Source: Alteromonas sp. (GTDB taxonomy: Bacteria > Margulisbacteria > Marinamargulisbacteria > UBA6595). Taken from it: 64,000 bases of DNA. Position 1 is the stretch's first letter, and every line of letters starts with the position of its first letter. The notes under the pieces were generated by a model. It made no database searches. It saw only the letters and a list, made by a program, of their open reading frames with translations, and had not been told where the DNA came from. Made by a program: the position numbers and the translations under genes. The DNA lies in contig CAXPTH010000022.1 in the NCBI GenBank assembly GCA_964220215.1, positions 194-64,193 of the forward strand, in the 5' to 3' direction. Positions 1-47,400 of the stretch are shown in pieces.

Positions 1-550
1 CACCATCGCCACGATAATACATCACCCCAAGCATATCCTGAGCATAAACAAGCCCTTGATCAGCCGCTTTTTTATACCATTCAACTGCTTGTTTGTAATC
101 TTTGTCTACACCATAGCCAAGATGATACATCACCCCAAGCTTAAACTGAGCATCAACAAGCCCTTGATCCGCAGCTTTTTTGTACCATTCAAATGCTTTT
201 TTGTAATCTTTGTCTACGCCTTTGCCACGATAATACATTCTTCCAACCTGATACTGAGCATAAGCATCCCCTTGATCAGCCGCTTTTTTATACCATTCAA
301 CTGCTTGTTTGTAATCTTTGTCTACACCTTTGCCAAAATAATACATTATTCCAAGCTTAGTCTGAGAATCAGCATGCCCTTGATCCGCAGCTTTTTTGAA
401 CCACTCAAATGCTTGGGGTATGTCTTTATTGCGCACATAAACCATCCCCCTCTCAAAAGCCTCATTTCCTTCACTGGAGTTATCAGCTAAGGAAATCCCA
501 GTGAAAAAAACAACAAAAAGGATGAAAGTAGTTATTAAGGTTTGTTTCAT
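1..550 (-). CDS. Secreted Sel1-like repeat (SLR) protein; 3' end runs off the window
   Basis: Minus-strand ATG at 550. Translation MKQTLITTFILFVVFFTGISLA (signal-peptide-like) is followed by at least 4.5 tandem 36-aa units matching the Sel1 consensus (G.MY..G.GV.KDYK.A.EWYKKAADQG). It is missing from the ORF track because it is open at the window edge. ORF 56..490(+) is its antisense shadow. Confidence 0.85.
   Translation of the reverse strand, partial: MKQTLITTFILFVVFFTGISLADNSSEGNEAFERGMVYVRNKDIPQAFEWFKKAADQGHADSQTKLGIMYYFGKGVDKDYKQAVEWYKKAADQGDAYAQYQVGRMYYRGKGVDKDYKKAFEWYKKAADQGLVDAQFKLGVMYHLGYGVDKDYKQAVEWYKKAADQGLVYAQDMLGVMYYRGDG
53..328 (-). repeat. Coding tandem repeat, 108-bp unit with a 216-bp higher-order unit
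   Basis: The 60-nt stretch 53..112 is repeated exactly at 269..328, an offset of 216 bp or two Sel1 units. Neighbouring units are diverged copies. Confidence 0.85.
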
Positions 551-582
551 ATCAATATAGTATACTACAGCTCAAATTTATA

Positions 583-802
583 TTATTCCCTGTTTGCAAA
601 CAAACTTGCGTTCAACTGACGGCCCATAAACGCTTTACCATTCAAGGCGTTGATGGCCTCAGCTTCTTCGGAGTCAGCACTCATTTCTACAAAACAAAAA
701 CCTTTAAATAGATCCGTTTCTCGATCATGGATCATTTTTGTTAACTTCACATGCCCATAATCTGAAAACGTTTCAGCATATCTGATGTTTGCCAAGATTC
801 CT
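583..802 (-). pseudogene. RRM RNA-binding protein, C-terminal (RNP1) fragment
   Basis: Minus-strand translation ILANIRYAETFSDYGHVKLTKMIHDRETDLFKGFCFVEMSADSEEAEAINALNGKAFMGRQLN. RNP1 octamer KGFCFVEM is present; the RNP2/helix-1 region is shortened and degenerate. The rest of track ORF 583..1023 (803..1023) reads through inverted-repeat DNA with no RRM similarity. Confidence 0.7.
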
Positions 803-857
803 TTAAAATCAATTAGCTTTTGGCAAATATGGGTCGAGTGAGGGCACGAGCGAGCCA

Positions 858-966
858 GATATACTGTGTTAGGCGACCCGAGCGGAGCGATAGCGAAGTG
901 AGAATGCAATGTGGCTTTAGCGTATTTCCAAGTCTCTTTTATTATTTGTTCGAGTGAAAAATTTTC
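858..966 (+). repeat. Left terminal inverted repeat (three modules plus a 46-nt insert)
   Basis: Modules are gatatactgtgttaggcga (858..876), tatttccaagtctcttt (923..939) and cgagtgaaaaattttc (951..966). The last two are exact reverse complements of 3329..3345 and 3298..3313. Confidence 0.8.
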
Positions 967-1024
967 GTTTTTGGCGAAGGGCAGAGGGGAATTAAAGGGG
1001 TGAATGCTCGTAGTCCAAAACACC

Positions 1025-2278
1025 TTATTCTTGTTCTGTGTACAGATTGTAAAATAAATGATGTATTTCTACCTCTTTTGTATCTCCTTCAACAGAATGA
1101 CGAGAGACAAAGTGAGTTTCATTTACTTTTCTATAGCCTCCATTATACGATTCATTATCTTCTAAGATTTTCTTTATTTGCTCTAATATTTCAGAGAAAT
1201 TTTTATTCCTAGAAAAAGTTATCATTACACCAAAATTATGCCTCCAAGTTAGGTATCCTCTAAGTTGATTAATAGTGGAATGATACAAATTTGCTCCTTT
1301 CCAAATTTTACACTCAAATACAAGAATATTTCCTTTATCAATGTTTAGATAAATATCAGTTTTACCATTGTTTGAAAAAGTCTCTCCTGTAGCTTTTCCT
1401 TCAAAAATTGAATTTAGGTTTACTAATAAAACATCTCTTAATGCCTCTTCTCCCATGCTTTCATAAGATTTTGGAGTCTTTTCAAATTGCTTACCTTGGT
1501 TATCTAAAAAAGAAATAATATCTAATACTTTTGCTTGATCTAAACTATACTCTTCTGGTTGTGTTGGTGTTGGTTTTACTTTTCTTATAATAGGTTTTTG
1601 AGATAATTCAATTTTTCTAGCTGTTGGATCTTCCTTCTTTTTTAGAGATATATTTATCTTCTTTGTTAATGATGACAATTTTTCCTTATCTTGATTTAAT
1701 TTATTTGCTCTATCTGAAATAAAACTAAATATATTACTTTTTAGTTTAGAGTTTTCATTTTCTATATCTTTATTTTTCCATAAAATTAGTTTTTTTACTC
1801 TATTTATTTGAGAGTCTAGATTTTGTGGAATTTGGTCTTCATTTAGAGAAAATCCGTAGCCTTTAGTTTCCAAAGAAAAAGTTATCTTGTTTGGAGTAAA
1901 AGAAAAATCTTTTTCTGAATAGCCAATTGAAAAAGTAGAAGATTGTAACTCTGCGATATCTCTTATTCTTTCATTTTGAATAATAGGAATTTCAACATCT
2001 ATTTTTTCACATTCAAAATCTAAATCTCCTTGAGATTGATACAACCATTCTCTTCCATGTGTATGAATAGTCTCTATGTACTTTTTCAGATCCCATGTAA
2101 TTTCTTGAGTTTTATCAAATAAGATTGGTTGTAAGCAATATTTATCAAGATAGTATTGAGTTAACTCTTCTATGTTTGTTCCGATTATAGTTGCGTCACT
2201 TTCTCTTAAAATTTCACTCATCACCTTTTCAAAAGACGTTCTGTAATAATCTGATATTGACGCTCTGTTTGTAAACAT
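1025..2278 (-). CDS. Uncharacterised protein with a C-terminal PD-(D/E)xK nuclease-like motif
   Basis: 417-aa ORF. The C-terminal segment EEALRDVLL...GKTDIYLNIDKGNILVFECKIWKG...INQLRGYL fits the E...D...E-x-K restriction-endonuclease-fold pattern. The N-terminal region of about 280 aa has a Lys/Asn-rich coiled-coil-like linker and no motif I recognise. Confidence 0.6.
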   Translation of the reverse strand: MFTNRASISDYYRTSFEKVMSEILRESDATIIGTNIEELTQYYLDKYCLQPILFDKTQEITWDLKKYIETIHTHGREWLYQSQGDLDFECEKIDVEIPIIQNERIRDIAELQSSTFSIGYSEKDFSFTPNKITFSLETKGYGFSLNEDQIPQNLDSQINRVKKLILWKNKDIENENSKLKSNIFSFISDRANKLNQDKEKLSSLTKKINISLKKKEDPTARKIELSQKPIIRKVKPTPTQPEEYSLDQAKVLDIISFLDNQGKQFEKTPKSYESMGEEALRDVLLVNLNSIFEGKATGETFSNNGKTDIYLNIDKGNILVFECKIWKGANLYHSTINQLRGYLTWRHNFGVMITFSRNKNFSEILEQIKKILEDNESYNGGYRKVNETHFVSRHSVEGDTKEVEIHHLFYNLYTEQE

Positions 2279-2305
2279 ATTTAGTGATAATTTTAAAAAC
2301 TAATT

Positions 2306-3190
2306 TCACTCAAAAAAGTCTTCATCAATTTCTTTGACCTCATAAACATTGCTTACTTGAACTCCAACTCCATATTGGTGCATTAAATCAACAAGTTTGT
2401 TTCCATCAATAAGAATTATTTTATGATGTGCTTCACGTGCTTTCTTGATTGCTGAATCGTCAAAAGTAGAGGTAGTTACAAAAATGCCCTTTGTAGTATC
2501 TCCGCTCATTGCTCCAATAAAATTGCGGATTTCTTTTTCACGGACTTTGTTTTCGTTATAACGTTTTGCTTGAATATAGATTTTTTCAAGTCCTAGTTTG
2601 TCTTCATTGATAATTCCATCAATTCCACCATCTCCCGATTTTGCAGTTTCTACAAAATCTCCATACCCCATTTTTTTAAGAAGAATCAAAATAACTTTTT
2701 CAAAATAGTATGGATCAATATCTTTCAATCTTTCTAGCAGGTCTGTTTTTACTTGAGCTTCAATGGTTGCAAAACCAGAATCAATTAAGTCTTGAGGAGA
2801 GGCATTATCAACTGATATTTTCTCAATTTCATTTTCTTTTTTGCTTTTTTGGGCTTCACGATGAGATATAAAGTCAGAATCGCTTTGGAGATCATCTAAA
2901 GTTAATTTTCCAGTTTTTAAAGCTTGTTTTCCTTTCTCTGTGATTTTTACCATTCCACGTTTTGGATAATCAACAAATTTGCCCATTTTTAAATAAGATT
3001 TACCCCAACCAATACGATCAAGTAAGACATTCGCCCCAGTACTTGTTTTTTGATCAAGTAAATCTTGTGGTAAATCCAAATAGTATTTATCACGAACACG
3101 AAGACCTAAATCTCTATGATGTAGAGATTCTTCAGTAATTAGTACTTCTAGTACTGGTATAAATGTTTCGTGATATTTAGGTAATTCCAT
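2306..3190 (-). CDS. mrr: Mrr-family type IV restriction endonuclease (Mrr_N winged helix plus Mrr catalytic domain)
   Basis: 294 aa. N-terminus is MELPKYHETFIPVLEVL...DRIGWGKSYLKMGKFV (Mrr_N-like). Catalytic region is SGDGGIDGIINEDKLGLEKIYIQAKRY (D...D...QxK core of Mrr_cat). Confidence 0.85.
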   Translation of the reverse strand: MELPKYHETFIPVLEVLITEESLHHRDLGLRVRDKYYLDLPQDLLDQKTSTGANVLLDRIGWGKSYLKMGKFVDYPKRGMVKITEKGKQALKTGKLTLDDLQSDSDFISHREAQKSKKENEIEKISVDNASPQDLIDSGFATIEAQVKTDLLERLKDIDPYYFEKVILILLKKMGYGDFVETAKSGDGGIDGIINEDKLGLEKIYIQAKRYNENKVREKEIRNFIGAMSGDTTKGIFVTTSTFDDSAIKKAREAHHKIILIDGNKLVDLMHQYGVGVQVSNVYEVKEIDEDFFE

Positions 3191-3274
3191 AGTTGTGTAG
3201 ATTATTTTGTAAAAAGTATATTCCTTCTGTCTTCATAAATAAATCGTTTTCGGAGCGATAGCGGAGAAAACTCC

Positions 3275-3412
3275 TTATTTCCCCTCATTAAAATTAAGAA
3301 AATTTTTCACTCGTTCCTTATTTTTTAAAAAGAGACTTGGAAATATGTCGCCTAACTGTGTTATATCCGCTTCTGTTGCCTTAAATGACACGTTCCCAAC
3401 ATAAATACTCAT
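3275..3412 (-). pseudogene. RRM RNA-binding protein, N-terminal (RNP2) fragment; 45-codon ORF
   Basis: AAGGAG lies 8 nt upstream of the ATG at 3412. Translation MSIYVGNVSFKATEADITQ (RNP2 IYVGNV) then reads through the right TIR (LGDIFPSLFLKNKERVKNF...) to a stop at 3275..3277. It is below the ORF-track length cutoff. Confidence 0.7.
3298..3367 (-). repeat. Right terminal inverted repeat
   Basis: The reverse complement reads gatataacacagttaggcga-ca-tatttccaagtctcttt-(15 nt)-cgagtgaaaaattttc. This is the same three modules in the same order as 858..966. Confidence 0.8.
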
Positions 3413-3574
3413 AAAGCAACACTCCTTATTTTACTCTAATTTTGAAATCTAATTACAATCATATCATTTTTTTGCTCTGTGATACATGTGTGTGGACGTA
3501 ATACAGTTGACTTGTTTGGAACCCATCCAAAGCTGAGAAAATATCTTGAAGCAATATGCTATGATAGTCTTTGA

Positions 3575-5650
3575 ATGAAACGTAAAGCATACGCGTGGGT
3601 ATTGGCCAGTATTTTCCCGCTAATCGCCGGGTTGCTTGTGGTGTTTTTGGGGGCATCCTTGGTATCCGTGGCTCATACTGGTCCTGTGGGGAGTGGGGCG
3701 GTGTATATGGGGCGATGGCTCATGGGCAAAGCGGTGTGGAGTGTGCCTATTTTGGGGATTATTGCCGTATGGCAGCGGTACGCAGCCAGGGTGTCGGCGC
3801 TGCGATGCAGTTTAGGCTGGGGTGTTTTGAGTTGGGGCGTGGCGCTGGGCCTGACCGGCTTGTGGGTGGACCCTTCGGCCATGTTGACGCAAACAACGTG
3901 CTGGAACACGGGGGGGTTGCTGGGGTTTATGACCTATCGGGTTCTTGTGGTCAGCGTGGGGCTATGGGGCGTGTGGCTCATGAGTGCCATATGTGGGATT
4001 GGGGGGCTCATGCTGTGGGGTGTTTCGATCTCGATGCCGGGATGGGGGCGTATCAAACAGGGCATTGTGTCGATGCGTGTTTGGGCATGGCTGTCCCGCC
4101 GACGGTCATCTGCGCAAGCGGTGGATGCGCCCCCAAAGCCCAAGCGGTCCAAACGGTTGCCCCCATCATCCGGCGTCCAGCATACGGGAAATTACCCCCC
4201 TATTGCTTTGCTGGATAAGCCCGATGCCCCCCGCACCACCACCGATCCCGATACCACGCGGGGGGATGCGGTTTTGGCTGTGCTGCACAGCTTTGGGGTT
4301 CAAGCTTCAGTGGCCAATGTGACCGTGGGGCCCAGTGTCACGCGGTACGAGCTCAGCTTGGGTCAAGGGGTTAAGCTCAGCAAAGTGATGGGACTGGCCA
4401 ACGATATTGCGCTTAAATTGGCGAGCCCAAATGTGCGGATTGAGGCCATTGCCGGCCAATCGTTGGTGGGTATTGAGGTCCCCAATCCCGATATTCAGTC
4501 GGTTCGATTGCGGCCCTTGATTGAATCCGTTCAATCGGATCCGGATAAATTATTAGCAGCCATGGGGCTGAGCATTACCGGCGAGCCGATTATTATGCAT
4601 TTGGGGCGCATGCCGCATGTGTTGATTGCCGGTGCCACTGGGTCGGGGAAAAGCGTGTGTGTGAACACCATTATTTTATCCATTTTAATGCGTGCGAGCC
4701 CGGATGACGTTCGGTTTGTGATGATTGATCCGAAAAAAGTAGAACTCAATTTATATGACGGGATCCCGCATTTGTTGGCTCCCGTGGTGACGGATTCGGC
4801 GCAGGCGGCCGCTACGCTGCAAAAATGGGTATTAAAAGAGATGGAGCGTCGGTACACGATTTTTTCACGCTTGGGGGTTAAGCAATTGGAGGGGTACAAC
4901 AAAAAAGTCACAGCCTTGCGTGACGACTATAAAAAGAATCCCAATAAAGTCAAAGCGGTGTTGCACGAAAAGTTGGGCTATGACCCAGAGGTTGAGGATC
5001 CGGTTTTGCCCGATGTGTTGCCCTACATTGTGGTAATTATTGATGAGCTAGCGGATTTGATGATGGTGGCGGCTCAAGATGTGGAGACCACCATTTGTCG
5101 CTTGGCGCAAATGGCACGGGCGACGGGCATTCACTTGGTGATCGCAACGCAACGCCCCAGCGTGAACGTGATTACGGGCTTAATTAAGGCCAATATTCCG
5201 TCACGGATTTCATTTTTCCTGCAATCACAAATTGATTCCCGAACGATTTTGGATTCGGGCGGGGCTGAAAAATTAATGGGTAAAGGGGATATGCTCTATA
5301 TGCCCGTTGGGACATTTAAACCGCAACGATCGCAAGGGGTTTTTGTTTCAGAAGCTGAAGTGGAGCGCGTGGTGTCGTTTTGGAAAAAACAAGCCAAACC
5401 CAGGTATCACGAAGATATTTTAAATGTGAAAGTGGATACCGTGAACGACTCGGTGTCAGAGGCCGAAGACCCGTTGTTTTTGGAGGCTAAAACCTTGGTT
5501 CAATCGCAGAAAAAAGTCTCGGTATCGTTGTTGCAGCGAAAACTTAAAATTGGTTATAATCGGGCGTCACGACTGATGGATGAATTGGAGGAAAAGGGGA
5601 TTGTTAGCGCATATGATGAAGCGCAAAAATCCCGGTTAGTGATTCGGTGA
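3575..5650 (+). CDS. ftsK: DNA translocase FtsK
   Basis: N-terminal TM helices; Walker A IAGATGSGKSVCVN; Walker B VVIIDELADLM; C-terminal gamma winged helix SVSLLQRKLKIGYNRASRLMDELEEKGIV. Confidence 0.95.
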   Translation: MKRKAYAWVLASIFPLIAGLLVVFLGASLVSVAHTGPVGSGAVYMGRWLMGKAVWSVPILGIIAVWQRYAARVSALRCSLGWGVLSWGVALGLTGLWVDPSAMLTQTTCWNTGGLLGFMTYRVLVVSVGLWGVWLMSAICGIGGLMLWGVSISMPGWGRIKQGIVSMRVWAWLSRRRSSAQAVDAPPKPKRSKRLPPSSGVQHTGNYPPIALLDKPDAPRTTTDPDTTRGDAVLAVLHSFGVQASVANVTVGPSVTRYELSLGQGVKLSKVMGLANDIALKLASPNVRIEAIAGQSLVGIEVPNPDIQSVRLRPLIESVQSDPDKLLAAMGLSITGEPIIMHLGRMPHVLIAGATGSGKSVCVNTIILSILMRASPDDVRFVMIDPKKVELNLYDGIPHLLAPVVTDSAQAAATLQKWVLKEMERRYTIFSRLGVKQLEGYNKKVTALRDDYKKNPNKVKAVLHEKLGYDPEVEDPVLPDVLPYIVVIIDELADLMMVAAQDVETTICRLAQMARATGIHLVIATQRPSVNVITGLIKANIPSRISFFLQSQIDSRTILDSGGAEKLMGKGDMLYMPVGTFKPQRSQGVFVSEAEVERVVSFWKKQAKPRYHEDILNVKVDTVNDSVSEAEDPLFLEAKTLVQSQKKVSVSLLQRKLKIGYNRASRLMDELEEKGIVSAYDEAQKSRLVIR

Positions 5651-41440: not shown

Positions 41441-44400
41441 ATGGGGAATATTACTTTGTATGAAGTACTATCAGGAGGTGCGGTGACTCAGTTTATTGAC
41501 AACGCTATTGTAGAGCGATCGGATGATTGGGCCTACCAGTCGGTGGATCAGATTATTCAGCAATCGCTATCGGTGATTCAAGATCCCGATGAGGGGGCAT
41601 CCGTTCAGGGGGTGTCGTCTGTGGATACGGCTCGGGTATCGAGCGAGTCGCCGTCTCCGGATGACCCGGTGGCAGACACACGGGTGTGGCGCAGCTTTAT
41701 TTTGGATACCATTCAACGGACGGTCACCGAGTTGGGGCAGGCGTATGGGGTTGACACGGCATCGGTGGACCATATTCAACGCGTATTGGCAGACACGCGC
41801 AGCTTGGACCAGGTTCAGATCTTGGCGGAGTGGTCGCCGGACATGTCGGATCGGGTTGAAGCGACGATTGTTCGGGCAACCCAGCGAGCGCTGCTGGACC
41901 ATCGCTTGGCGGCGTTGGGTATTGTGCCGTATACGGCGCCACCATCGGCGTCGGCGGTCTTGTATCCGAGCGGGTTGGTTCCGCTTCCAGTATCGGCGGT
42001 GTCGGTGCCCATGGAATCGGTGGATACGGCGGTGCTTCAACTGGCTCGGGAAGCGGCGCAATCGGTATCGGGCCCCTTGGCGTTGGCGGATTGGATTGCC
42101 CTCGCCCAATCAATATCGAGTGGTTTGTCTGTGGTGGATGCTCCGGAGTATTGCCAATCAATTGCGGTGATGCTGGGTGTGACTGCGGCTGGCGAGTCGG
42201 TGCAGGGCATTGTATTTCCGGATGCGGATGGGGTGCAGCGGATGATCACATCCGTTAATTTGGTGGATTTGGATGCCCCGATTGAATCGGTGCATGCGTC
42301 GGAGATTCGGCCTGCGATACTTCGCTATTCGGATACGGCGATGGTGGTGGACGGGCCCATTCCGGGGCTGGGTGTTCGGATGCTGGATCGGGCCCCGATT
42401 GTGCCTGAAGCCATTGCGGTGGATGCGGGTCGGTTGGGTCAGGTGATTGCCACGGAGCAAACCCAAGGGCGAAACCCCATGACCTTTATTGATCCGGATG
42501 CTGCGGTGGTTGTGGATCTTGTTAACGATTGGCAGGCATCGGGGTATGTCCAGGCCGGGATGACCGAGTCCGAGATTATGACTGCAGTACATCGGTATGT
42601 GGCGGATCGGATTGCGTATCAATCGGATGTGGGGGACCAGTGGCAAACGGTTGAGCAGACGCTGGCTCGGGGTGCGGGTGACTGTGAAGACATGGCTATT
42701 TTGGTGGCATCGCTGGCTGCCCGGGCGTTGCATGCGGTAGGTATGAATGATCTGGCCGAAACGGTCCGGCTCGAAGCGGGGTTGATGGCGGATGGCGCGG
42801 TGGGGCATATGGTCGCCCGTGTGGGCGAGCAGTGGGTGGTGGACGCCACACAGTCGGTGGCGATTCAGGATCGCACGGCAGTCGCCATGGATAGCGTGTA
42901 TGTGCTGGGTATGAACGGCGTTCAACAAACGGGACGGTTGGATCAAGTGGCGCGGCTGAAACGGGTGGGGACAGCGGGGAGAGAAGCCGATTATTTAGAA
43001 TTTAGAAAGACAGATGATTCTAATAATTTAGCCATCTCCGGTGCTCAAACATGGACTATGACCCACTCTTGGTACGGTGGATCTTGGAGTTATAATTCAG
43101 GTTCATTTTCAGATACAACAAAATGGAATGCGATTATAGCCGCATTAAATACCAATACGGGAAGCATAGAACAAAGATTGGAATCTGTTAGATGGACCAC
43201 AACGCAAAGGATACATACAGATTCATACATGTCTTGGGACCGACGCGATGATAAATCTGGTGATTATGAAAATTCTATACGTGACAATGCTAATAATGGC
43301 GATAGTGGTAGTATCTTTCAAGGATCCAATCAGCGTCTTTACGGTCTTCACTCTTATGATGTTTATAGACATGGGGGTGCGCAGCCTTATAGTTTTGGGG
43401 ACACTTCGCGTGATTGGAGAGATCATTACGATATAACACTTGGTCATATGCTAACGACTACTGAAATCAATCATCTGGCAAATATTATTCGAGAACAACC
43501 CTCCCAAGGGGAAATTGACCGACGGTATGCTATTGCTAATTCAATACGTGGTTACCAAGACTTGGCATCTGATTTGTTTGGTTATTTTTATGGTTTTTGG
43601 TTAGGATCCGAAGATGACGTTATTTTTAATTCCGGTGTTAGTGCATTTATTTCAAATTTTGCTGATATTACCAAAGATACTGAACGGTTATTAAACATAG
43701 GATTCATAAGCCCAAACCAAATAGACGCTATAGACGCTATAAACTATATTTTTGGGAAAGATACTAGCAATTCTAATTCTATTGACGATGTCGCTAATTT
43801 TTCTGGTACTACACAAACACTTACTTCTGTTCAAACAACTGATGTTGATAACGCAGTATCAAAATTCGCCGATAATAATGAGAATTTTAAAAAAATTTTA
43901 AAATTCTCACTTTCGAATTCCGGTCCAATTACTCCAGGTAATGTATCTGAACCTGTTACTCAAGAGCAAAAAATTCTAAAGGCTACAAATAATATTAAGA
44001 ACGCCGTTGAGCGTGCAAAAAACATTTATAATAAACTGTATGGCTCAGGCTTATCTATCAACGTAGGCGACCTACAAGACTACCTTGTGGGGGCATGGAT
44101 TGAAGGCGTTGATTACACTTATAATCCGTATGAGATTCTGGACTTACTAACACGAAATAGGGTTGATAATCCAGAAAATTATGCGAAGTTTTCAGCGCAT
44201 TACGTGACAGTCGGTACTTTAAATAGCTCGAGGTTGACCAAATACACTAATATAAGAGAGGACTTAAATAAGAGCTATGATACTAATAATAAAAATGACT
44301 TAGATTCATTAGCTAGAGCGGTTCAAAATGCAGATGATAGTTATGTTGCCATCCTGAACGAGTATTTCAATTTAACCCTCGCAAACGTTTTGGTAGCAGT

Positions 44401-47400
44401 CAATGACCAAATGTCGGATACCGAAAAATTATCCACAATGCTACACAACATCCAAAAATTACGTCAACAACAAGGACTCTCATTGGAACAAGCCCGAAAT
44501 TTGTGGTTCCTTATTTATAGTAATGAGCTTGGAGTACAAAACTACTACGGAAGCTACATCGCCACCCACATTGACCGAGACCCCATTAAATTCTTTTTTG
44601 AAAAGCTAACTAGAAATGACAATGGCACGTTTGATTTTTCAAGAGCACAAACAGAAACTCAGATTGCTCAAGCGCTTTACGAAACAAACACCCCCCCCCC
44701 TCTTTTTAGTTTTAGCGGTTATTTTAATGCCAATAGCGATTGGGAGGACACTATAAGTGGTATCAATTCTACTGACATCAGTGTTCGACTTACAGCCAGC
44801 CGTAATCTATATAATTTATTAAAGCAAAAAGATAATGATGATGCCCTATCAATCAAAATATTAACGTATATTTTGTTGAAAACAGATGGCAATACAGCTC
44901 AGTTTTTGCCTTCGTTGGAGGCTGATTACAAACAAGCTGCTTTTTATGTTGTTGATGCGGTTCTTGAGAATGATTCAAATGTTGAGATAGATACGATTCT
45001 CGGTCACGTTAAAAGTAGCATTAATGACTATGTCTTCCCAGACCTACAAGACGGCAAAAATTTCGCAGATTTTATGGGTGAATATAAAACAGCAAAACGA
45101 GCATCCTTTCCAGTTGAATTGACTAATCTGTCTTGGCATAATGATGTTGATTTTCCCAATTCACTGGGAAATCTAGCCACTTCATTTACATTTCAAGACT
45201 ACGTTGGAGCCGCAGGTTTTGATGGAGGGGACAATAATTGGCGTTATGGAGAAGGTCCTAGTGGTATTACTATTTCAATTAATAACCCTCAACGAATACA
45301 AACTAATCAGCAGGCCTGGGACAGGTTTAAAACGCATGTAAGTAATTATGATCCTTCTGTTGATCTATCTGCTCACTTAAGGGGCTTTAGGTGGTCTGGT
45401 GGATTAGAATTAGTAGGGACACATAATGATGGAACCGGTGGTTCGGCGAGTGACCTTGATAGCGCATTTAATGATCAATTGTCTGGAAGTAATAATGGTA
45501 TAGTTGGTGCTGAGCATAGAATCGCACGGATACCCGAACTCGACCCATTTGGTGTCGGATTTGATACCTACATTTCTAGAACTATTCAGTACTGTTTAAC
45601 AGAGGCTGAGATAGATTATTTTAAAAATCTTATTCAAATATATGATGGTAATATTTTTGAATCTGGAGTTGAATCATCGGACATTAGCAACTATTTAAAC
45701 AGTGTTGTTTCAGGTAGCAGTGTTGTTTCAGGTACAGGTATCCCCAAAGCTCAATTCGCCTCTTCCGGAACGGCCTTTTTGAGCGATGATGTTATTGATA
45801 GTTTGGATTTTTATGATCGGAATAGAGCAACACAAATTGACAGCAGCTTAATTGAAAGGTTTACCAACCTACCACTGCAATTGTTTACATATAATAATGG
45901 TAATGACTTATACACGTTAACAGATGAAGGCAAAATATTTGGTGCAGCACTAAACGCTGCAGAGGGGGCTAATCCTAGCTTTGATTTTAAAATCATCAAT
46001 AAAACTGCTAGTGAATGGCGTCAGGTAGATCTCGAACATGATTTACATGATTTAGACAGAATCTTTTTTAACAAGCATTTTTTTATTATTAATGACAAAA
46101 TTATTCAAAAAAAAGAGATAACCGCTAATAGTTTGATAGGTGTTAGTCCCGCAGTAAAAAGTTTTTTTACAGAACAGCTAACCACAGAAAATGTTTTTGG
46201 AACAGATCAAAAAGCCCATTTTATAGCCGCGTATAACGCCACTAAAGGGGATCTATTAATTAAACAAAATGTGACTGATGAACAAATTCAAATTTTTAAA
46301 AATCACCTTAAAACCAGAAGTTTAGTCCCTAGCAAAGTGATAAGCATACTCCAGCCGACAGCCGCTCAACTACAAGCTAGCTTGGACACGTCGTGGGATC
46401 AATTGAATGCTCAAAGATTGATTACTGTTCAAGCAAACGGAGCATTTTCTAATGCTATTTTGATCGCAGATCTTAGCAGTCAACTGGATAATATCGATCA
46501 AGGCCAAATCACGGCAAGCAGTTTTTCAATGATTGGAGACGGGAGTCTGGGGGGTGAAATTATTAGTTTTTTGAAAGGACAAAATTATGTATCAGACGAA
46601 GGCTATGTCGAAGATAAGTTTGATTCTGATATTCCAATTAATTATGATGGACTAACTGCTAGCTTATCAGATGACCAGAAATCGGTAATTCATCGCATAT
46701 TCATTTTGGCGAAAACAAAAAAAGCGTATTGGGATAGTGTTAATGAATTAAATGTTCGGTATGGTACAGCACGTAGAAGCCATGGTGAAGCAATTTCTGC
46801 CATAAGAGATGAAGATTCTGACATGTTAGGTAGATACACCACAGCAATAACTGACATCAAGAATTGCCAAACTGAAATAAATAGGCTTCAACGTGAAATC
46901 TATGATGATATGCTTGAAGTCGTTAATTCATTGACGAGAGAACCTTCCCTTTACCTCGGGGATATCGACAGTAACATTGATACTTGGTCATCACAAGACA
47001 TTAGTGAATTGCGGAGGTATTATCTAGGTTATATTAATAGCGATGTAAATGGTTTGGAATTAGGATTCAGTACAGAAAAACTGAAGGTAGATATGTTGGG
47101 TATCATTAGTGATGCTGGGCTAGTGGCAGCCAGTCAAGAGCCTGGGCAATTGAGTCTGGATGAGGGCACGTATATATACGACTATCGTATAAGCAGTGGT
47201 CCACCAAAATTTGAATCTAAAAATTTTAGACAGATTGTTGAGAAATTAGGTGAGATGGAGATTTTGGGCAATAACGAGTCGATTCCTAATAATTTTGAAT
47301 ACACAGAGCAAGATATAAGTACTATAGCCAATATAGAAGGTATAGCTAGTATAGACAATTTGGATGGCAATTTGGATGACTATGATTTTAAGTATATAAA

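Follow-up and report, generated by a model that had tools for sequence, protein, structure and literature searches.

Insertion of integron gene cassettes at genomic GTT sites is already known, from laboratory demonstration and by inference from solitary attC sites. For the integron integrases IntI1-3 the attC × attG route has been demonstrated; it needs one cleavage at a GWT consensus, and its products are disrupted genes and solitary cassettes (bioRxiv 10.1101/2022.09.11.507474). Anti-phage genes packaged as integron cassettes are described in 'Mobile Integrons Encode Phage Defense Systems' (bioRxiv 10.1101/2024.07.02.601719). Restriction-modification (RM) units with long inverted repeats have been recognized by genome comparison with empty sites (Furuta, Abe and Kobayashi 2010, PMC2853133). 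The locus described here lies in a 64,000-nt stretch of DNA (the window) of contig CAXPTH010000022.1, assembly GCA_964220215.1, from the Marinamargulisbacteria. On the minus strand of this window, a small gene for a protein with an RNA recognition motif (RRM) is interrupted. Positions 770-3353 are probably a solitary integron-type ('SALIN'-like) cassette, horizontally acquired from a donor of low guanine-plus-cytosine (GC) content and inserted at a GTT in the RRM gene. Direct support is provided by the insertion point, the empty allele, the cargo, a foldable 118-nt site with covariation, a family of related cassettes, and members of the same type in an array and in first position beside a recombinase. 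New in this case is a natural event with occupied and empty alleles, base-precise junctions and an identifiable cassette family.

Like the SALIN cassettes (bioRxiv 10.1101/2022.09.11.507474), the window cassette is solitary, has open reading frames (ORFs) directed toward a 3' attC-type hairpin and sits at a bare GTT (attG GWT) in a disrupted gene. No integrase is found nearby, the target is not duplicated, and expression from the resident promoter is possible, again as in SALIN. It differs in the cargo of its family (two or three genes), a conserved leader, arms beyond the R boxes, one GTT fewer than a conservative model predicts, the lack of the strict hotspot motif, a linked recombinase without the IntI-specific domain, and the combination of a low-GC donor with a Margulisbacteria recipient. 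With classical attC sites and arrays it shares RYYYAAC and GTTRRRY boxes, the order R''-spacer-L''...L'-spacer-R', first bases complementary to its own R'' box, and termini identical to those of >140 environmental attC sites. At two related loci treated below (L094, L158) a divergent recombinase lies about 95 nt from the first G/TT, as in classical arrays (a slash marks the point of joining throughout). In contrast to classical sites, the L boxes of the window, L152 and L156 have no bulge (there is one in L094 site 2), the two spacers differ in length (5 and 8 nt), the integrated site gives no covariance match to canonical attC, and the recombinase has 270 aa, with about 43 IntI-specific residues absent. 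Compared with the defence cassettes of bioRxiv 10.1101/2024.07.02.601719, the genes here are an Mrr-type gene and a candidate defence gene, PDC-S54, outside any integron and in an uncultivated marine lineage. The RM units of PMC2853133 are similar in having bracketed restriction genes, no mobility gene and an empty site; they differ in having 8-bp target duplications and no attC-like hairpin, while no duplication and a recombinase-linked site family are found here.

The split of the RRM gene, first reported in a preliminary description of this DNA, was confirmed. An ATG at 3412 opens MSIYVGNVSFKATEADITQ, the reading frame ends after 45 codons (3275), and RRM sequence picks up again at ...ETFSDYGHVKLTKMIHDRETDLFKGFCFVEM... 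and terminates at 583. In a database search with the joined protein, both fragments were collinear with one intact 79-aa orthologue (P0001/P0214), which defines the empty site. P0214, a member of the P0001 cluster, shares ...ADITQLFSDYG... with the window and bears the name of an RNA-binding protein from Ca. Marinamargulisbacteria. For the window itself, this host is assigned from the cluster names of ftsK, purL, recG, mnmG and trkH. The conceptual join of both parts matches Pfam RRM_1 at 2e-14; on a 146-aa ORF at the 3' part the match covers residues 84-137 (E=2e-10).

The uninterrupted allele, which the preliminary description proposed to seek in related genomes, is present in seven contigs of related Ca. 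Marinamargulisbacteria (L006 and L159-L164). Positions 1-1159 of L006 equal window 4512-3354 and positions 1160-1320 equal window 769-609, with no gap; the other six contigs read GCGGATATAACACAGTT/GTTTTCAGATTATGGG, the same as the window flanks. The insert is therefore exactly 770-3353, or 2,584 bp (3n+1). Across the insertion point the uninterrupted allele is ...ACACAGTT/GTTTTCAG..., giving ACACAGTTGTTTTCAG when joined. All 16 target bases (ACACAGTT plus GTTTTCAG) are present in the window, so that target sequence was neither duplicated nor lost. This disposes of the target-site duplication GATAT suggested earlier: merging at GATAT would also shift the frame, and the copy at 778-782 lies inside the insert as part of the cassette L' stem. 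CACAG and TAACACAG are ruled out as duplications by the same empty site; in the related cassette L152, CACAG is internal and the flank differs.

The low GC of the interior was borne out, with 0.31 for the insert and 0.477 for the remaining window (0.23-0.33 in the interior, 0.46-0.61 to the right of the insert). Both junctions are covered by L002, an NCBI assembly made independently, which differs from the window at 3 positions in 3,719 nt. Logan assembly contig L001, from another sequencing run, contains the 5' junction as well, and the cassette itself was found in L002-L005. The presence of both junctions in independent assemblies means that the insertion is not an assembly artefact. The preliminary description was right in supposing that a low-GC cassette of foreign origin had integrated into an RNA-binding gene; the gene is conserved, and relatives have it in the empty-site form.

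The 5' RRM fragment is 100% identical to the uninterrupted allele in L159, L160, L162 and L164. In L162 and L164 the RRM coding sequence is 98.8-100% identical, compared with only about 80% for the adjacent 5' region of ftsK, and the high identity extends to synonymous sites, which would reflect either unusually strong conservation or recent gene exchange. By this comparison the cassette destroyed a strongly constrained gene. The insertion inactivated the RRM gene; no RRM paralogue was found within the 64-kb window, and the 3' fragment is starting to drift (R to L beside RNP1). A 146-aa 'RRM_1' protein annotated in GCA_041235605.1 (window 583-1023, L002 2697-3137) has its GTG start inside the cassette tail and is an artefactual fusion of cassette tail and RRM C-terminus.

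At the 5' end, the GTT at 3356-3354 is common to the target and the R' box, and the cassette proper begins with A3353. Read on the minus strand, the insert starts with (GTT)AGGCGAC-A, followed by an arm of 18 nt, 14 nt and an arm of 16 nt. Its tail consists of the 16-nt arm, 10 nt, the 18-nt arm, 45 nt and GTCGCCTAAC, and then 98 nt ending in GCTGAAAC. These inverted repeats of leader and tail pair over 18/18, 16/16 and 10/10 bp, with 2 copies in 0 of 100 shuffles. When the cassette ends are joined, a 118-nt attC-like palindrome is formed (GTCGCCTAAC...GTTAGGCGAC) with a 10-bp R stem, an 11-bp inner stem (CAGTATATCTG/CAGATATGCTG) and a variable tip (stem 827-820/795-788). The DNA fold of this joined site beats 200 of 200 shuffles (z=-4.2). 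Its layout is R''-5 nt-L''...L'-8 nt-R', its length lies in the attC range of about 55-140 nt, and the ORFs run toward it, as in canonical cassettes. The integrated copy retains R''-L''-L'-G and then continues with target sequence. The 75 nt (783-857) that had been left unexplained belong to the conserved 3' hairpin (867-770); what was taken for a left terminal inverted repeat (TIR) plus 75 nt is one structure, an attC-like 3' end, about 92% conserved in L152, where the adjacent gene is 81% identical. Coordinates are summarized in Table 1.

Table 1. Features of the interrupted RRM gene, the inserted cassette and its relatives (window coordinates)
Feature	Position	Strand	Remarks
RRM gene 5' fragment	3354..3412	-	codons 1-19 + TT of Leu20 codon; RNP2 IYVGNV
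Inserted cassette, probably integron-type	770..3353	-	2,584 bp, 31% GC; breakpoints from seven empty-site contigs
R' box GTTAGGCGAC (GTTRRRY = GTTAGGC)	3347..3356	-	perfect complement of 877-868
Cassette leader	3233..3353	-	arm 18' 3345-3328; arm 16' 3313-3298; inner arm GAGGGGAAATAAGGAGT 3286-3270; direct repeat CGCTATCGCTCCG 3263-3251
mrr-like type IV (methyl-directed) restriction endonuclease, 294 aa	2306..3190	-	Pfam Mrr_N 2e-16, Mrr_cat 6.4e-36
PDC-S54 protein, 417 aa	1025..2278	-	full-length PADLOC PDC-S54 match, 1.3e-78
Cassette tail	868..1024	-	inner arm 1002-984; arm 16 966-951; arm 18 940-923; direct repeat 895-883; R'' box
R'' box GTCGCCTAAC (RYYYAAC = GCCTAAC, 874-868)	877-868	-	pairs with R' box
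3' hairpin of attC-like site	770..867	-	spacer ACAGT; L'' ATATCTG (within 866-856); L' CAGATAT (within 784-774); spacer GCTGAAAC (777-770)
RRM gene 3' fragment	609..769	-	G of Leu20 onward; RNP1 KGFCFVEM; 98-99% identical to orthologues
Replaced RRM ORF 3' end	583..608	-	NASLFANRE* in place of NVSKARS*
L152 cassette			EcoRI-like methylase, GmrSD/HNH protein, PDC-S54; inserted between recR and unrelated gene
L156 cassette			Tsp45I-type restriction-modification pair + PDC-S54
L158 cassette			PDC-S54 alone

Covariation was found where the window could be compared with its relatives. The sites of the window, L152 and L156 have fold z-scores of -4.0 to -5.0 and L stems of 7-11 bp; their consensus fold (R stem plus block) comprises 30 pairs, five with double compensatory changes, and in the R stem alone the window and L156 differ by three such changes. 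The first bases of each cassette match its own R'' box at 10/10 (window), 9/10 (L156) and 8/10 (L152) positions. A covariance model of window-type sites (R2) scores 81.7 bits at 760-877, the sole site in the 64-kb window. A site scan of public collections with the pattern GTCGCCTAAC-N85-115-GTTAGGCGAC found 23 genome loci and >120 metagenome loci; classical attC architecture characterises almost all of them, and several belong to arrays. The 64 sites that could be oriented have the form R''-5 nt-L''...L'-6-8 nt-R', and the window site has the same geometry (5 and 8 nt). Rfam gave nothing relevant in window 500-3700; a group I, group II or other self-splicing intron was rejected on this result and on the insert length of 3n+1 nt. 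A resemblance of the termini to dif/Xer sites, judged by eye, was unconvincing beyond ...CGYATAA.

The cargo was previously described as two unrelated genes. Both encode nucleases assigned to defence, PDC-S54 as a candidate: the 294-aa ORF is a full-length match to PADLOC mREase_IV (1.7e-55) and the 417-aa ORF to PADLOC PDC-S54 (1.3e-78). Both ORFs are intact, and the cargo is, judging by these matches, probably anti-phage restriction. An AlphaFold2 (AF2) model of PDC-S54 (pLDDT 81.5) has an N-terminal alpha/beta domain, a long helix and a C-terminal PD-(D/E)xK-like nuclease domain. The best Foldseek matches are Cas4, Can2, NucS, MspJI and Shedu SduA, all weak (E>=0.015). D308 and E322-C323-K324 are invariant, and this D...E-C-K motif fits the PD-(D/E)xK fold, so that the C-terminal domain may, on weak grounds, be of PD-(D/E)xK type. 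Matches of the N-terminal part to a Pol-beta-like fold were set aside for low probability. No match to the PDC-S54 sequence family was found in Pfam, NCBIfam or PDB, and the literature search found no paper mentioning PDC-S54. More than 500 homologues are spread over defence-type contexts and plasmids; the named relatives are mostly from Patescibacteria. PDC-S54 was not found in viral contigs, and relatives on plasmids and phages are only 25-32% identical.

The surroundings of close PDC-S54 homologues revealed a family of cassettes with the same leader and tail and different cargo. At least four further contexts hold homologous cassettes whose restriction cargo differs, and PDC-S54 is the sole gene present in every member. 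The leader is homologous among the window, L152, L156 and L158. Complementarity of the arms was scored element by element, global alignment of circularised ends being unreliable in the arms. Each leader is complementary to its own tail over its whole length (scores 30-43, z=10-15; window z=14.8), compared with scores of 10-21, the shuffle range, against the tails of other cassettes. All four 5' junctions lie at G/TT: CAGTT/AGGCGAC, CAGTT/ATGCGAC, ACGTT/ATACGC and TAGTT/ATACGC. With a peptide read through the tail as query, at least 11 further clusters were found, on contigs of up to 495 kb. In one of them, P0234, the back-translation reads ...CAGATATACCAAAAC-GTTATACGCAA... (...AAAC-GTTATACGCAA), in which the block is directly followed by the leader of another cassette. 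The block or tail was sought in viral contigs, plasmids and phages, with nothing found.

PDC-S54 is the last gene in L152, L155, L156, L153/L154 and L158, downstream of varied modules: methylase plus GmrSD/HNH, ApaLI RM, Tsp45I RM, methylase plus a 133-aa ORF, and none in L158. This order suggests that cargo occupies a fixed place between leader and PDC-S54, or that PDC-S54 and restriction systems are functional partners. The same Mrr plus PDC-S54 module occurs in L151, where identity to window 3280-806 is 96.6%; the leader is missing there and the hairpin block is truncated. It is bracketed there by a 31-nt direct repeat (TGATTTATTTAA..TTTCGCAACAGTCCC; L151 1-60, 2520-2555) in flanks of 47.6% GC, and from these repeats L151 looks like a different type of event, resembling an insertion with long target duplication.

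Two loci link the cassette type to a tyrosine recombinase. In L158 the PDC-S54 cassette is in first position, beginning 97 nt from a divergent gene for a 270-aa tyrosine recombinase with G/TTATACGC. The second, L094 (JGI Ga0209542_10164332), is a 2,167-nt contig of 35% GC that was recovered by the site scan. It carries a 270-aa recombinase 58% identical to that of L158 and, after 93 nt, G/TTAGGCGACAT, the first bases of the window cassette; the first cassette next to the recombinase thus starts with the same 10-mer as the window R' box. Next come a small ORF, an attC site that combines the R boxes of the window with a CGAAAC-GTT spacer, another small ORF and another site. The two small ORFs encode membrane proteins. 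The second site was found with the model of window-type sites (25.4 bits, E about 1e-4) and reads CGGCTAAC-AGC-GTATATCTG...CAGATGATAC-GCAAAC-GTTATGTGC (GTT after GCAAAC), nearly the boxes of L156 and the window, with one bulged G. Its R' half does not complement its own R''; this is expected for an array, in which the sequence beyond the crossover is part of the cassette that follows.

The best solved relative of both recombinases is the Vibrio integron integrase IntI4 (2a3v, 1.4e-42), narrowly ahead of XerA, and both pass NCBIfam NF040815 'XerA/integron integrase' (226-228, cut-off 220). GC-rich loci from the same scan have IntI genes of ordinary length, about 310-315 aa. The IntI-specific domain contacts extrahelical bases in IntI, and a recombinase without it corresponds to window-type L stems without a bulged base. 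Within the window, no recombinase was found among 10 scanned ORFs of 240-344 aa. Among the papers found to mention Patescibacteria together with integron and attC, none, judged by title and abstract, has a Patescibacteria integron as its subject.

From these data the following course may be proposed for the solitary cassette. It would have moved as a circle, with the predicted junction GCTGAAACGTTAGGCGAC (or GCTGAAACAGGCGAC), and its folded attC-like hairpin would have recombined with the bare GTT in the RRM gene by the attC × attG route. An integron-integrase-like tyrosine recombinase would have acted in trans, a likely candidate being the short 270-aa IntI/Xer-like type that adjoins cassettes in L094 and L158. 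The low GC, together with named PDC-S54 relatives that are mostly Patescibacteria, would indicate the donor lineage. Features of an attG-type event were found, with GTT at four of four 5' junctions, one site in the 64-kb window and no recombinase among the scanned ORFs. Since the window has no recombinase, the cassette is probably stranded now.

Several points weigh against an integron-type origin. The empty site is GTT-GTT, and the occupied allele has one GTT per junction, that is, two and not three. A conservative G/TT exchange with a circle carrying its own GTT, as at the L094 and P0234 junctions, would predict three. One unit may have been lost by slippage beside the hairpin, or the joining may differ. 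The 3' flank of L156 begins with GCA instead of GTT. The strict attG hotspot motif has CRGM at +6..+9; the window deviates from it by one position, and none of the other targets shows it. Extrahelical bases are lacking, as the L stems of the window, L152 and L156 have no bulged base and asymmetry is confined to the spacers. A covariance model of 55 canonical GC-rich attC sites (R1) is a weak test, with a narrow training set and an integrated site that is without its R' half; it gives 1.4 bits at 833-877 and no match in the family loci. The recombinases fail the integron integrase model TIGR02249 (221-222 bits, cut-off 265), and their alignment to IntI4 skips residues 172-240, with about 43 residues of the IntI-specific segment absent. 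Each cassette has long self-complementary arms beyond its R boxes that evolve in concert with one another; the L094 cassettes have none. To our knowledge such arms have no role in integron recombination, and neither they nor a cargo of several genes nor a conserved leader are known as features of classical cassettes.

A more specific reading is put forward tentatively, as a possibility to which we give well under even weight. The cassette would belong to an unrecognised integron-like lineage of low-GC bacteria, possibly of Candidate Phyla Radiation (CPR)/Patescibacteria type, with a short 270-aa recombinase that lacks the IntI-specific domain. Each cassette of this lineage would form a self-contained defence module of several genes, equipped with a leader and long self-complementary arms, and would be able to cross phyla into ordinary genes at GTT.

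The long arms also raise the question of a non-autonomous TIR transposon (like a miniature inverted-repeat transposable element, MITE, with cargo), moved by a DDE transposase in trans as might apply to the RM units with long inverted repeats. In its favour, leader and tail are imperfect inverted repeats of considerable length (18/18, 16/16 and 10/10 bp; z=10-15), the element encloses no transposase, and published RM units likewise have inverted repeats of 26-65 bp but no transposase (PMC2853133). Such an origin is nevertheless improbable, as those published cases have 8-bp duplications and no target-site duplication is found here. Arm sequences are unconserved between members, with cross-element scores at background, and are therefore unlikely to be transposase-binding sites. 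The two ends are also unequal, a 98-nt hairpin lying outside the right repeat, and hairpins of this family recur in an array linked to a recombinase, in cassettes without such arms.

There is likewise little probability that the element mobilises itself, with PDC-S54 cutting GTT^G and resolving a three-way junction of leader-tail pairing beside the 3' hairpin. The protein is encoded by the only gene common to all members, always adjoins the 3' structure and stands alone in L158. Leader/tail pairing would bring both junctions side by side, and the single case with an empty site has a clean insertion between GTT and G. However, close homologues (79-83% identity) occur without these ends in L153/L154, L155 has a different leader, and the >500 homologues extend across defence-type contexts and plasmids. 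The L094 cassettes, moreover, share the site family without PDC-S54, and we know of no PD-(D/E)xK enzyme that performs such strand transfer alone.

Very improbable is a single-strand 'peel-and-paste' element of the IS200/IS605 or IS91 type with an HUH transposase in trans. It would agree with the absence of a duplication, with 5' flanks that all end in GTT, and with a subterminal right-end hairpin that has AAC at its 5' foot, able to pair with the flank GTT. However, no HUH gene is found in any member, the left end has no hairpin like that of the right end, the ends being mutually complementary instead, and an array or first-position organisation beside a tyrosine recombinase is unexpected for these families. 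An assembly artefact, or a chimeric contig joining unrelated DNA within the RRM gene, is hardly credible: Logan contigs break within the element ends (847 and 3328), yet both junctions occur in two independent assemblies (the window and L002, differing at 3 positions), the 5' junction recurs in a Logan contig of another run, and the junctions coincide with the ends of a structure conserved at other loci. Of all these readings, an integron-type cassette inserted at a GTT has the best support.

Concerning expression of this cassette, no terminator-like site was found between the RRM start and mrr, so that read-through from the RRM promoter, which the preliminary description proposed to drive the cargo together with the RRM ribosome-binding site, is possible. 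A consensus scan of the leader found no sigma-70 consensus promoter. A -10-like TATAMT motif precedes the first cargo gene in every member, and the L158 cassette is divergent from its upstream gene. Together with the conserved leader, this suggests that the cassette is self-sufficient and independent of a host promoter. As far as these motifs and gene arrangements can tell, the cargo probably owes its expression to the leader, to read-through from the RRM promoter or to both. A direct (not inverted) repeat, CGCTATCGCTCCG, at 883-895 and 3251-3263 is conserved in L156 and looser in L152 and L158; it could be a putative protein-binding or regulatory motif.

Defence genes would here have travelled as a cassette from a low-GC donor pool into marine Margulisbacteria, at the cost of an otherwise almost invariant gene. 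The orphan defence candidate PDC-S54 thereby gains a concrete mobile context. The recombinase-linked loci are candidate integron-like platforms with a shorter recombinase that would not be called by current integron finders. Standard integron detection needs the IntI-specific domain, so that such platforms, if genuine, would be missed. Practical consequences are modest: a corrected annotation, a candidate recombinase/site pair and a candidate defence nuclease.

Homology to the RRM orthologues ends at 609 (...CAGTTGAACG/) for all orthologues, and the last six RRM codons differ. The breakpoint at 609 is a second rearrangement, independent of the cassette, which replaced the last six codons and the downstream region. 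Window 1-560, downstream of 609, contains Sel1-like repeat ORFs; the counterpart region in L159-L161 and L163 has an 83-aa gene, a 296-aa gene and lpxC. The Logan contigs L001, L003 and L004, from independent runs, end at the same positions (847 and 3328) inside the cassette ends, which hints at further hairpin copies or variants in those samples. On the other side of the insert, the first ~800 nt of ftsK (5' part, membrane domain; window 3600-4400) have 59-61% GC, compared with ~47% in the rest of the window. Farther away, window 41441-55222 is occupied by a single ORF of 4,593 aa on the plus strand.

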